From Escherichia phage vB_VIPECOMC06, in the sequence record PQ416618.1: a stretch of 64,000 nt of DNA; one strand, 5' to 3'. The notes beneath the pieces are model-generated. The model was not told the origin of the DNA, made no database searches, and was given only the letters and a program-made list of their open reading frames with translations. Numbering within the stretch: position 1 is the first letter of the stretch; every line of letters begins with the position of its first letter. Position numbers and translations under genes: made by a program. Positions 20,300 to 49,419 of this stretch are shown here, piece by piece.

Positions 20300-20712
20300 T
20301 GAGATATAGCCTTCGTTGTTTTATCGCAGCTTTAGTTTTTGCCATCATTCCATTCATTTGGAACAGCCAGAATACTTACATGGAAACTAAAGTAATTCCT
20401 GTGGAGGTAGTGGAATTAATCTCAGGCCAATCTACAGGAAAATATTCTAAATTGGAATTTATTGCAGTTTATAAAGATGAACAAGGTCGAGTTTTTGACA
20501 GGCATGTATCACCGTCGTTTTATACGCTTCTGAATAAAGGTGATACGATAGCTATAGAAATTCGTGAGATGGATATCAAACAAACTACTAAAGATAACTT
20601 GATTTGGTTCTTTGGTACAGTGTTGTTGGTTTCTATCTGTATCACAGGTTTTATTACATGTATTGTATTTGGCATTACATATTTAATCGATGAAAGGAAA
20701 AATAATGTTTAA
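20299..20712 (+). CDS. predicted membrane protein (137 aa)
   Basis: N- and C-terminal hydrophobic helices. Confidence 0.45.
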   Translation: MRYSLRCFIAALVFAIIPFIWNSQNTYMETKVIPVEVVELISGQSTGKYSKLEFIAVYKDEQGRVFDRHVSPSFYTLLNKGDTIAIEIREMDIKQTTKDNLIWFFGTVLLVSICITGFITCIVFGITYLIDERKNNV

Positions 20713-20968
20713 AGTGTATGGTTATGACTCTACTATTCATAAATGCATTTATTGCGATAATGTAAAACGATTGCTGACTGTTAAGAAACAGCCATTCGAA
20801 TTCATTAATGTTATGCCAGAAAAAGGTATTTTTGATGATGAGAAAATTGCTGAGCTTCTGGTTAAGCTTGGACGTGAATCACAAGTCGGATTGACTATGC
20901 CTCAAGTGTTTGCTCCTGATGGAACTTCGATCGGTGGCTTTGACCAACTACGAGAATATTTTAAATGA
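20705..20968 (+). CDS. nrdC: thioredoxin/glutaredoxin-like (T4 NrdC type)
   Basis: MFKVYGYDS..HKCIYCDN..FDQLREYFK; 87 aa; CxYC active site; ATG at 20705 after AGGAAA. Confidence 0.85.
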   Translation: MFKVYGYDSTIHKCIYCDNVKRLLTVKKQPFEFINVMPEKGIFDDEKIAELLVKLGRESQVGLTMPQVFAPDGTSIGGFDQLREYFK

Positions 20969-21321
20969 CATATTCATTAAATCTTAAAGATTTCCAAGAT
21001 GTATACGAAGTTTGTGCTAATGAACTTGGTCCTGATGCTCCAACTATTATTGAAGTTTTAAATGTGCTCCCTTCATCATTAGCTTACGAAGCCAAATCAT
21101 GGGGTTGGAACGACACTGTCGTTCGTGATGACCTTTACGTCCTGATGAACGATATGATGGTTAAAAAGGCAGAACAGGCTGCACCAATGGTTACCATTAC
21201 CGTTAAAGAATATAATCGCCTGCAAGCCATTGAAGAGCTTCTGTGGAACATTGAATGTGACCTGCCATCCGGACTAGAATCCTGGATTGATTATGAAGAG
21301 CTCAATAAACTCCGGGGTTAA
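20965..21321 (+). CDS. hypothetical protein (118 aa)
   Basis: ATGA coupling to nrdC. Confidence 0.45.
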   Translation: MTYSLNLKDFQDVYEVCANELGPDAPTIIEVLNVLPSSLAYEAKSWGWNDTVVRDDLYVLMNDMMVKKAEQAAPMVTITVKEYNRLQAIEELLWNIECDLPSGLESWIDYEELNKLRG

Positions 21322-21333
21322 ACCGTGGTATTC

Positions 21334-21357
21334 GGCTCGATGGGAGACAGTCGAGCC
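21334..21357 (+). terminator. stem-loop, putative terminator
   Basis: GGCTCGA-(10 nt)-TCGAGCC perfect 7-bp stem. Confidence 0.35.
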
Positions 21358-21370
21358 AGACGTCGAAACA

Positions 21371-21400
21371 GTTTACAACGACGAAGAAAAATGTTATGAT
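21371..21400 (+). promoter_or_regulatory. early promoter
   Basis: GTTTAC, TGTTATGAT. Confidence 0.5.
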
Positions 21401-21449
21401 GAGCCTTCAATAAATGAATTAATTGATATGGAAATGGGAAGAGATTATT

Positions 21450-21620
21450 ATGCAAGTTAAATTATTGTACCGTTTATTAAAAAATGGCAAGCATGATTGG
21501 TATTTGCTTATTAAAACCGATCCGAATTTTTTCTCTGGACAACCATTTACAGTTCGTCCTACTAAACGTCAGCTTCGCAAAGCTAAACGTTCTCATCATA
21601 ACTTTTATAGAGAATATTGA
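21450..21620 (+). CDS. small basic protein (~56 aa)
   Basis: ATG at 21450; C-terminus VRPTKRQLRKAKRSHHNFYREY; paralog of the ORF at 22046. Confidence 0.35.
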   Translation: MQVKLLYRLLKNGKHDWYLLIKTDPNFFSGQPFTVRPTKRQLRKAKRSHHNFYREY

Positions 21621-21621
21621 T

Positions 21622-22035
21622 ATGAATATTTCTGAAACTCGCGGTAAATGGTTCAAGATTGTTAAAGAAGACGAAGAACTCCAAGATAAGTTTCCTGAAT
21701 TAAAGAAAGATACGATCATCAAGGTAATTGGTACTACTACCGAAGATGGTTATGGCGACCATGGCATTATCGAAGTGATGTTGAACACAGGTGAGAAACT
21801 TTGCATCTATGACCGTGATACTTCTCTTTGGTGCTTCTGGGAATCCCATTCAATAGATGAACTCGAAGAAATTGACCAAGTAGTTTGTGATGGTGGACTT
21901 GGCGAATTCGAAGGTGAACGTATTTCTTATGCTTTAGCTAAATTAGCCGCCCAAGAAAATAATGACGGTTATGAAGGTAATCTGATGCAAGCCGCAGCGG
22001 AATACATTGAATATTTAGAAAGACGTTTAAGTTAA
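21622..22035 (+). CDS. hypothetical acidic protein (~137 aa)
   Basis: ATG at 21622 just after upstream stop. Confidence 0.45.
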   Translation: MNISETRGKWFKIVKEDEELQDKFPELKKDTIIKVIGTTTEDGYGDHGIIEVMLNTGEKLCIYDRDTSLWCFWESHSIDELEEIDQVVCDGGLGEFEGERISYALAKLAAQENNDGYEGNLMQAAAEYIEYLERRLS

Positions 22036-22045
22036 GGGCTTATTA

Positions 22046-22225
22046 TGAAAACTGCATTATTTTTTGGCGAAAGAACAAACGGTCAAAAATCTTGGAAATT
22101 TGTTATGATTGGTGCTCCAAACAATCCGAACATGAGGACTTCAATCATTTCTGTAACACGTCCTACTAAAAGAATGATTCGCCAATACAAACGTTTCCAT
22201 CGTGACTTTTATAACATTTATTAAA
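22046..22225 (+). CDS. small basic protein (59 aa)
   Basis: Below track cutoff; C-terminus VTRPTKRMIRQYKRFHRDFYNIY parallels the ORF at 21450. Confidence 0.3.
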
Positions 22226-22226
22226 T

Positions 22227-22257
22227 TATAAATACCCTTATCTAATATGGTAAGGGT
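22227..22257 (+). promoter_or_regulatory. late promoter plus SD-sequestering hairpin upstream of gene 49
   Basis: Exact TATAAATA at 22227-22234; ACCCTTA / TAAGGGT stem including the SD. Confidence 0.65.
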
Positions 22258-22262
22258 TTATT

Positions 22263-22736
22263 ATGTTATTATCAGGCGCAAAATATAAAGAAGAAAAACA
22301 AAAATTTTATGATGCACAGAATGGTAAGTGTCCTATTTGCCACCGTGAATTAGACCCTGATGTTCAAGGTAACCATCTTGACCACGACCACGAATTAAAC
22401 GGGCCAAAAGCAGGTAGAGTTCGTGGGTTACTCTGTAATCTGTGCAACGCAGCAGAAGGCCAAATGAAGCATAAGTTCAACCGTTCGGGTCTTAAAGGAC
22501 GTGATGTCGACTACCTCGAATGGCTTGAAGCTCTTCTTGCTTATTTGAAACAAGATTATTCTGATAATAATATCCATCCTAATTTTGTTCCAGACAAAAC
22601 TAAAGAGTTCTCAAGACTAGGTAAAGAGGAAATGATGGCCGAGATGCTTCAAAGAGGATTTGAATATAATGAATCTGATACTAAAACACAATTAATAGCT
22701 TCATTCAAAAAGCAGCTTAGAAAGAGTTTAAAATGA
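22263..22736 (+). CDS. 49: endonuclease VII (Holliday junction resolvase)
   Basis: MLLSGAKYKEEKQKFYDAQNGKCPIC..HLDHDHELNGPKAG..RGLLCNLCN; 157 aa as in T4 gp49. Confidence 0.9.
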   Translation: MLLSGAKYKEEKQKFYDAQNGKCPICHRELDPDVQGNHLDHDHELNGPKAGRVRGLLCNLCNAAEGQMKHKFNRSGLKGRDVDYLEWLEALLAYLKQDYSDNNIHPNFVPDKTKEFSRLGKEEMMAEMLQRGFEYNESDTKTQLIASFKKQLRKSLK

Positions 22737-48903: not shown

Positions 48904-49221
48904 ATGGAAACCATCGATTGTAAAGCAGAATTTAAGATTTTTTATCACGGTTCAAGCAGTTCAGCTAACATCGAAAACATGCTTTGTCCTCCTGAGGAAA
49001 CAGGAGTTCTGTCTGAAACTGGACGTAAGAAAAACTTGGATCGTGTATTCTTTACTGAAGATATCGGTTTAGCAAAGATTTATGCAGGACGAGCAGCACG
49101 CTCTTATGGAGGTGAACCACGTCTCTATCGAGTAATTTCTCCGGTAGACGTAGTTCAAATGAATAATACTAAAGGTGCTACAGTTTATCACGCTGAATGG
49201 GCATTTTGCGAGGAAATATGA
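48904..49221 (+). CDS. hypothetical protein (105 aa)
   Basis: SD AGAGGAGAA downstream of promoter cassette. Confidence 0.4.
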   Translation: METIDCKAEFKIFYHGSSSSANIENMLCPPEETGVLSETGRKKNLDRVFFTEDIGLAKIYAGRAARSYGGEPRLYRVISPVDVVQMNNTKGATVYHAEWAFCEEI

Positions 49222-49406
49222 ACAAATTAACTAAAGTTACTTTTATCGGTTGGTTTAAAAGCGGCGAGATGTTCACTAAAGATATCATGTTATCAGGTGA
49301 TCGCGAAGAAATCGAGTGGGTTGCGGTACAACTCGCTGAAGTGAACAGTGCACTTGTTAAAGCATTTGTCGATGATAAGAAAGTTTTTGAAGCAGATTTT
49401 CGATAA
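49218..49406 (+). CDS. dmd: Dmd-like antitoxin (inhibitor of host RnlA/LsoA toxins)
   Basis: VTFIGWFKSGEMFTKDI...WVAVQLAEVNSALVKAFVDDKKVFEADFR matches the T4 Dmd pattern as recalled; ~62 aa; next to gene 41. Confidence 0.6.
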   Translation: MNKLTKVTFIGWFKSGEMFTKDIMLSGDREEIEWVAVQLAEVNSALVKAFVDDKKVFEADFR

Positions 49407-49419
49407 TTTTAAAATAACT

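Follow-up and report, generated by a model that had tools for sequence, protein, structure and literature searches.

In two papers that deal with it, TifA is described as an RNA-binding inhibitor of ToxN, the abortive-infection endoribonuclease of toxIN, a toxin-antitoxin (TA) system of type III (PMC9391042, PMC10853763), and in phage T4 it is the product of gene 61.4 (PMC9391042, Srikant et al. 2022). According to PMC10853763, the TifA helix carries a conserved Pro-Thr cap followed by exposed basic residues, and the protein binds RNA with a dissociation constant (Kd) of 0.36-2.3 µM as well as single-stranded and double-stranded DNA. With the substitutions P53A/T54A or K55A/R56A/R59A, TifA no longer bound RNA or ToxN and no longer neutralised the toxin. 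It was proposed there that ToxN is trapped on abundant RNA, notably 16S rRNA. TifA co-purifies ToxN with 16S rRNA, and specificity for given ToxN homologs was assigned to the sheet and a loop of ~20 residues including position 41. Dmd (T4 gp61.5), the antitoxin against RnlA and LsoA, resembles TifA in being a small protein which T-even phages make early and which neutralises an RNase toxin of the host, and belongs to the published concept of an 'anti-TA island'; its inhibition of RnlA is direct and does not involve RNA as a co-factor in the way proposed for TifA (PMC9391042). In this study, we analysed a stretch of 64,000 nucleotides (nt) of Escherichia phage vB_VIPECOMC06 (PQ416618.1), hereafter the window, and found that two small basic open reading frames (ORFs), here ORF1 and ORF2, which flank the Lon inhibitor gene pinA upstream of gene 49, almost certainly encode paralogous members of the TifA family. 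The window belongs to a Mosigvirus (RB69/JS09-like) T-even phage, and the 1.9 kb around these genes are 98.9% identical to vB_EcoM_JQD51 and 95.9% identical to RB69.

ORF1 and ORF2 matched the Pfam family PF23945 (DUF7279; cut-off 24.5 bits) with 50.5 bits (expectation value, E, 2e-13) and 53.0 bits (E 3e-14), respectively, and PHROG 3272 with E 2e-25 and E 1e-29. Published TifA sequences, taken from Table S2 of PMC10853763, matched the same Pfam family (T4, E 2e-20 and 72.7 bits; RB69, 2e-17; vB_EcoM_005, 6e-20; PM2, 5e-19), and the vB_EcoM_005 homolog fell, like ORF1 and ORF2, into PHROG 3272 (E 1e-25 over its full length). A hidden Markov model (HMM) built from nine members adjacent to pin was used for scanning the whole T4 genome in six frames; the best match was gene 61.4 (E 2.7e-6, 'FAVRPTKRQIRQCKRYFRK', also given as 'IKFAVRPTKRQIRQCKRYFRK') and the second match was the end of pin, with no intact copy of a TifA-like gene on the pin side of T4. 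When the pin-adjacent alignment was compared with eight published TifA homologs by hhalign, a probability of 96.9% (E 1.8e-10) was obtained, and ORF2 residues 15-56 were paired with T4 TifA residues 25-69. By these profile comparisons DUF7279 is the TifA family, an identification which this analysis adds. The ORF1 type is already recognised in print as a TifA homolog, by alignment only, because the phiE142 protein A0A0U4JDN8, which represents the 90% cluster of ORF1 and is 93% identical to it, is among ten 'TifA homologs' aligned in Fig. 5C of PMC10853763 (Guegler et al. 2023). A0A0U4JDN8 differs from ORF1 in being the lone ORF1/ORF2 chimera remaining in phiE142 after loss of pinA.

Every database still labels these proteins hypothetical or DUF7279, and routine family and structure searches led no further than 'unknown function'. 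The literature searched under DUF7279 or RB69ORF087c/089c yielded nothing, and neither ORF had a match in the PADLOC and NCBIfam libraries. A word-indexed homolog search returned 9 matches and an exhaustive profile search 11, several of them low-complexity artefacts. At database scale a profile of 10 pin-adjacent sequences did not reach TifA, and the link came only through the direct scan of the T4 genome.

A preliminary description of this DNA, made from the letters, had noted two small basic proteins with a common C-terminal motif on either side of an acidic protein, a short way upstream of the late promoter and hairpin of gene 49. All of this was borne out, including the C-termini exactly as quoted there, and the likeness was found to span the whole length of both proteins, with 34% identity over 59 columns (BLASTP, E 6e-10), which is far beyond chance. 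Residues common to both are N12, G13, W17, P, RPTKR, R, KR, H and FY. The net charge is +10 for ORF1 and for ORF2, -17 for the acidic protein between them and -8 for the product of 49.1, the gene before ORF1. The start given for ORF1 was right, while 22046 and 22225, given for ORF2, were each off by one (Table 1). A six-frame HMM scan of the window detected no TifA-like copy besides these two.

The ratio of nonsynonymous to synonymous substitution (dN/dS) was 0.15 for ORF1 (window versus RPN187, synonymous distance dS 0.46), 0.11 for ORF2 (window versus RB69, dS 0.58) and 0.14-0.29 when ORF2 was compared with its equivalents in Tequatrovirus and Dhakavirus, a range like that of pinA (0.11-0.19). 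Since their dN/dS is as low as that of pinA and their starts are tightly coupled to the neighbouring genes, ORF1 and ORF2 are real genes under purifying selection. By tblastn, ORF1-type genes of at least 80% identity were present in 145 phage records, ORF2-type genes in about 55, and distant full-length relatives in about 300 more, which were mostly of Tequatrovirus and carried the gene nearly always beside pin and 49. The preliminary description had named lack of conservation in related phages as a point that would count against it; the ORFs are conserved there. Between the window and RB69, dS was 0.58 for ORF2 (compared with RB69 locus 2648-2827) but 0.057 for the adjoining pinA; the ORF2 allele has been swapped by recombination with a more distant lineage.

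AlphaFold2 (AF2) models were obtained with a predicted local distance difference test score (pLDDT) of 80.1 for ORF1 (strands 2-9, 15-24 and 27-33, helix 39-55) and 87.6 for ORF2 (strands 2-9, 15-22 and 31-36, helix 42-58). Both are predicted to have the TifA architecture of a three-stranded sheet and a C-terminal helix, a prediction here being compared with a prediction. TifA residues P53, T54, K55, R56 and R59 correspond to P37, T38, K39, R40 and R43 in ORF1 and to P40, T41, K42, R43 and R46 in ORF2, and the Pro-Thr cap together with the three basic positions is invariant or nearly so across the subfamily and across genera. The C-terminal helix is amphipathic, with a basic Lys/Arg face apart from a hydrophobic face. 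RNA binding by ORF1 and ORF2 is therefore a property that we consider likely from the kept residues, and the earlier suggestion of 'nucleic-acid- or ribosome-binding' peptides fits the TifA family in this respect, although the TifA family and PinA had not been recognised at that stage. The double-stranded RNA-binding domain (dsRBD), PUR and other known nucleic-acid-binding folds were set aside as candidates, as a Foldseek search of the PDB gave no significant structural match to them; its best match had E 0.7, the template-modelling (TM) score was no higher than 0.46, and a few dsRBD and PUR-alpha matches lay in the noise. When PDB sequences were searched with a profile, the only matches were repeat artefacts due to designed 'Bagel' propellers, and no solved structure was found.

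Compared with the TifA proteins of T4 and RB69, ORF1 and ORF2 have in common with them PF23945, the predicted fold and the motif [VT]RPTKRx[IL]Rxx[KR]R, and all are small and basic, lie in a region of early genes and occur only in T4-like phages. Homolog searches, IMG/VR included, showed the ORF1/ORF2 family to be essentially absent outside T4-like phages, with two loci only in IMG/VR. The differences lie in length (56-59 aa in ORF1 and ORF2, which have no C-terminal extension, versus 68-98 aa in TifA), in a shorter connection between β1 and β2, in a shorter β2-β3 loop of unrelated sequence, and in location, with two copies at pin/49 about 27 kb from dmd whereas canonical tifA forms a dmd-tifA operon. 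In the hhalign alignment TifA has a 4-residue insertion, and its loop sequences are unrelated to those of ORF1 and ORF2, which also differ mutually. The vB_EcoM_005 homolog (Dhakavirus cluster) is a 73-aa protein of the dmd side, encoded at 120.6 kb in a genome with a pin-side copy at 95.0 kb, and its helix 'ARPTKRQIRKLKKAHRQ' is close to the ORF1 helix 'VRPTKRQLRKAKRSHHN'. In PMC10853763 this homolog was well expressed and neutralised 0/7 type III toxins. No sequence relationship was found between Dmd and ORF1 or ORF2.

We assign a probability of about 0.65 to the reading that ORF1 and ORF2 are RNA-binding counter-defence proteins of the TifA type, probably with an RNase toxin as target. The two proteins would be made early from transcripts running from nrdC to gene 49, with translation coupled to 49.1 and pinA. 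Their basic helix would bind RNA, while the sheet and the β2-β3 loop would keep a protein of the host, most probably a toxin of the RNase type, bound to bulk RNA, and a toxin held in this way could no longer cleave phage transcripts. By analogy with TifA, counter-defence against a toxin stands at even odds, and ToxN itself is a doubtful target. Since the specificity loop is shorter than that of T4 and RB69 TifA, bears no sequence relation to it and is not the same in ORF1 as in ORF2, each of the two proteins probably has a target of its own, other than E. coli ToxN.

Several observations weigh against this reading. As judged from AF2 boundaries, the loop between strands 2 and 3, which has ~20 residues in TifA and is predicted to contact ToxN there, is cut down to about 8 residues in ORF2 and to about 2-3 residues in ORF1. 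In PMC10853763, the six TifA homologs tested from outside T2, T4, T6 and RB69, among them the PHROG 3272 member of vB_EcoM_005, neutralised 0/7 type III toxins, and an anti-ToxN role is therefore not to be assumed for ORF1 and ORF2. Neither gene lies beside dmd, the home of all characterised tifA genes. A BFVD structure search returned uncharacterised T4-like phage proteins only, with no named TifA model among them. Loss of either copy is frequent in nature, and the RB69 reference sequence carries a disrupted ORF1, so that any function of ORF1 and ORF2 would be conditional.

All four presence/absence arrangements were found in Mosigvirus. The order 49.1-ORF1-pin-ORF2-49 is that of the window phage and JS09, and also of RB69, in which ORF1 is disrupted. 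In RPN187 (49.1-ORF1-pin-49), ORF2 was lost by a deletion between TAA repeats (locus 1620-1665), which fused the pinA stop to the hairpin and changed the gene 49 motif from TATAAATA to GTTAAATA. LNA2 has 49.1-pin-ORF2-49. In CAU_ECP01 and phiE142 pin is deleted and the order is 49.1-chimera-49, with the crossover in a 9-nt stretch, ACTTTTATA, common to both paralogs. Such variants are common, as Mosigvirus-type PinA was found in 122 records versus 145 with ORF1-type and about 55 with ORF2-type genes. Tequatrovirus likewise showed four variants, namely pin followed by a full TifA-like gene (PP01), a fused tail (T4), a fused tail plus a full copy (RB32) and clean gene loss (JoYop). A TifA-like gene beside pin was found in Mosigvirus, in about a third of the sampled Tequatrovirus and in Dhakavirus, and Salmonella phage S16, which has no pin, carries a 49.1 homolog followed by two TifA-like genes with a 116-aa gene between them, the second TifA-like gene being the more divergent one (PF23945, E 1e-10). 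These comparisons show that the pin-side TifA-like genes are accessory, copies being created and removed by short-homology deletions and by recombination between or around them, which can take pinA away as well.

Some details of these loci were recorded in addition. In the GenBank record of RB69, ORF1 (RB69ORF089c, locus 2025-2223) has a frame change and a stop near the 5' end and is annotated as a 38-aa ORF, which is either a sequencing error or gene loss in the laboratory strain. In Dhakavirus VR5 (locus 1328-1501), pin is reduced to a 57-aa C-terminal part of the PHROG 9092 type, and the TifA-like gene after it is intact. The 116-aa gene of S16 (locus 2001-2697 region) contains a 'RWALFT..H' stretch that was also seen, by eye, in a gene of ~100 aa between pin and 49 in Erwinia phage Virsaitis27; the gene in the equivalent place of Klebsiella phage TNG87 shows only a loose likeness to these two. 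The next gene of S16 (gp48) has the look of a GIY-YIG homing endonuclease.

The dmd gene is present in the window, but it lacks the canonical tifA which JQD51, JS09 and RB69 have behind it. Alignment to JQD51, the closest relative, revealed the scar of a 206-bp deletion, and no TifA_RB69-like sequence was found anywhere in the window by tblastn. Because this deletion left only the last tifA codons, TTTAAAATAA, the phage has lost canonical tifA, with the pin-side paralogs as the only TifA-family genes of the window. RB69-type tifA was present in 69 phage records, a number about half that of the Mosigvirus records with ORF1. Directly upstream of dmd there is a 105-aa ORF (48904-49221), the end of which lies 4 nt past the dmd start codon.

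The acidic protein between ORF1 and ORF2 is identified by sequence as PinA, the inhibitor of the host Lon protease. It matched Inhibitor_I24 (PF10465) over residues 7-137 with E 3e-47 and PHROG 2167 with E 4e-51, is 50% identical to T4 PinA, is annotated as pin in RB69 and has the same place between 49.1 and 49. The window protein is the short form without the C-terminal tail of the T4 type. T4 was found to differ from PP01 by one 137-bp deletion, through which the final 15 codons of the following gene, 'MIQQYKRLHQMFYNT*', stand in frame behind the '...SDR' codon of pin. Since this single in-frame deletion explains the junction with the 3' end of that gene, the last 15 residues of the T4 PinA (161 aa; T4 locus 1898-2383) are what is left of a TifA-family gene. 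T2 and many natural isolates have the T4-type fusion in colinear form, PST and HP3 carry it too, and it was found in about two thirds of a spread sample from 384 records covering the junction; the fused tail changes faster in amino acids than the PinA core. A Lon degron of the SulA type in the tail pattern 'RQL..K..H.NFY' was considered and rejected, as scores of local alignment to the 20-residue SulA sequence sul20, set against 5000 shuffles, gave P 0.02 to 0.8 across seven family members. SulA had no HMM match to the family, and the extreme C-termini of the family are variable, versus the terminal Tyr-His recognised by Lon.

Other explanations of ORF1 and ORF2 were weighed against counter-defence of the TifA type. 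They might be general RNA- or ribosome-binding proteins of host takeover, which coat or sequester RNA, such as 16S rRNA, or act on translation or mRNA stability with no toxin partner. TifA alone does co-purify with bulk RNA and binds nucleic acids at sub- to low-micromolar Kd with no obvious sequence specificity, and most of the tested homologs neutralised no toxin (both from PMC10853763); moreover, ORF1 and ORF2 share with TifA the RNA-binding helix and not the toxin-contacting loop. However, the specificity of TifA for particular ToxN homologs shows more than simple RNA coating, and frequent gain and loss among near-identical phages is typical of host-specific counter-defence rather than of core takeover, and we regard this explanation as unlikely. 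The gene order raises a different idea, that the basic helix has PinA or gp49.1 as its partner and works as a chaperone, modulator or antagonist, or else addresses Lon itself as substrate or decoy. Charges alternate along 49.1, ORF1, PinA and ORF2, whose start and stop codons overlap or abut, a TifA-like gene lies beside pin in three genera, and its last 15 codons are fused to pinA in T4, T2 and many relatives. The two genes nevertheless occur apart: TifA-like genes are present without pin in CAU_ECP01, phiE142 and S16 and with only the 57-aa pin remnant in Dhakavirus, while pin is present without ORF2 in RPN187 and without any copy in JoYop, CC31 and Klebsiella phages. As the T4 fusion is a single deletion with a tail evolving faster than the PinA core, and the likeness of that tail to the SulA degron is not significant, a module directed at Lon seems improbable.

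The losses themselves could also be taken to mean that ORF1 and ORF2 are redundant, decaying duplicates of tifA without present function, which persist only because useful genes and the control region of gene 49 enclose them. The repeated independent losses, the ORF1 frameshift in the RB69 reference and the gene remnant that forms the T4 PinA tail would all agree with decay. Against it stand a dN/dS of 0.11-0.27 over dS up to >1, equal to that of pinA, RNA-binding residues that are invariant across genera, intact copies in hundreds of genomes, and the fact that the window phage keeps both copies despite the loss of canonical tifA; we consider decay very improbable.

The features of the locus are listed in Table 1. 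The end of 49.1 and the start of ORF1 overlap by 11 nt, pinA begins one base behind the stop of ORF1, and the start of ORF2 follows the pinA stop by 9 nt, with an AAGGG Shine-Dalgarno-like sequence ahead of it; because their starts and stops overlap or abut in this way, the four genes form a tightly coupled block. Sigma-70-type sites in the region did not exceed the number expected from shuffled sequence, so the promoter within 49.1 is a weak candidate. The late promoter motif of gene 49 is kept as ATAAATA in T4, PP01, RB32 and RB69, and the hairpin that follows it is intact in every deletion variant examined. A role of ORF1 and ORF2 in the control of gene 49 was dropped, because every deletion variant keeps the promoter-hairpin unit, with or without a preceding TifA-like gene. 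An Rfam scan gave no match on the region.

Table 1. Features at the pin/49 and dmd loci of the window (positions of the 64,000-nt stretch).
Feature	Position	Strand	Details	Basis
nrdC	20690-20968	+		gene order
118-aa ORF	20965-21321	+	acidic	gene order
49.1-like ORF	21293-21460	+	55 aa, acidic, isoelectric point (pI) 4.1	RB69 annotation; PHROG 2382, E 3e-28
Candidate sigma-70-type early promoter within 49.1	21372-21400	+	TTTACA-17 nt-TATGAT, TG extension	consensus scan only
ORF1	21450-21620	+	ATG 21450 to TGA 21620, 56 aa, pI 10.6	PF23945, PHROG 3272, AF2
pinA	21622-22035	+	Lon protease inhibitor, 137 aa, pI 4.3	Inhibitor_I24, PHROG 2167
ORF2	22045-22224	+	ATG 22045 to TAA 22224, 59 aa, pI 11.4	PF23945, PHROG 3272, AF2
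T4-type late promoter motif of gene 49	22227-22234	+	TATAAATA, 3 nt past ORF2 stop	sequence reading
Hairpin ahead of gene 49 ATG	22234-22257	+	9 bp stem, -13.4 kcal/mol, z -2.8	folding
Gene 49 (endonuclease VII)	22263-22736	+	ATG 22263	gene order
nrdD	from 22733	+		gene order
dmd	49218-49406	+		tblastn match, ORF list, alignment to JQD51
Scar of 206-bp deletion of canonical tifA (61.4)	49407-49416	+	last codons TTTAAAATAA left	alignment to JQD51

In the RB69 record the 118-aa ORF behind nrdC is split in two, RB69ORF092c and RB69ORF091c. For the C-terminal half a match to PHROG 3402, 'antitoxin from a toxin-antitoxin system', was obtained (E 1e-32), together with a weak one to models of the T7 gp5.9 RecBCD inhibitor. 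Together with PinA and the TifA-like genes, this ORF suggests a second gene cluster of the anti-TA type. A far-reaching version of this idea, speculative and probably not correct as a whole, would make the nrdC-to-49 region of RB69-like phages a second anti-toxin-antitoxin island, in which two minimal TifA paralogs, unlike in their specificity loops, each trap a different host RNase toxin (not necessarily of type III) on RNA, PinA blocks the Lon-dependent release of type II toxins, the PHROG 3402 ORF adds a further activity, the pin-side copies substitute for the lost tifA, and the T4 PinA tail tethers the Lon inhibitor to RNA or ribosomes.

In conclusion, what is new here is the identity of DUF7279 with the TifA family, by which the Pfam label 'DUF7279' may be replaced by 'TifA family', the origin of the tail of T4 PinA, a protein studied biochemically, as a TifA-like remnant, which bears on the interpretation of PinA structure-function work, and the loss of canonical tifA in this phage. 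The pin/49 interval is a hot spot in which deletions at short homologies reshuffle putative counter-defence genes among otherwise near-identical phages. Few counter-defence proteins of phages have a mechanism that is worked out; that of TifA, the trapping of a toxin on RNA, is an unusual one, and ORF1 and ORF2 may represent a natural 'minimal' TifA in which the RNA-binding base is kept and the specificity loop is changed. Two different minimal TifA paralogs in one phage without tifA would thus be a ready system for studying the toxin targets of the family and the way its specificity is coded.

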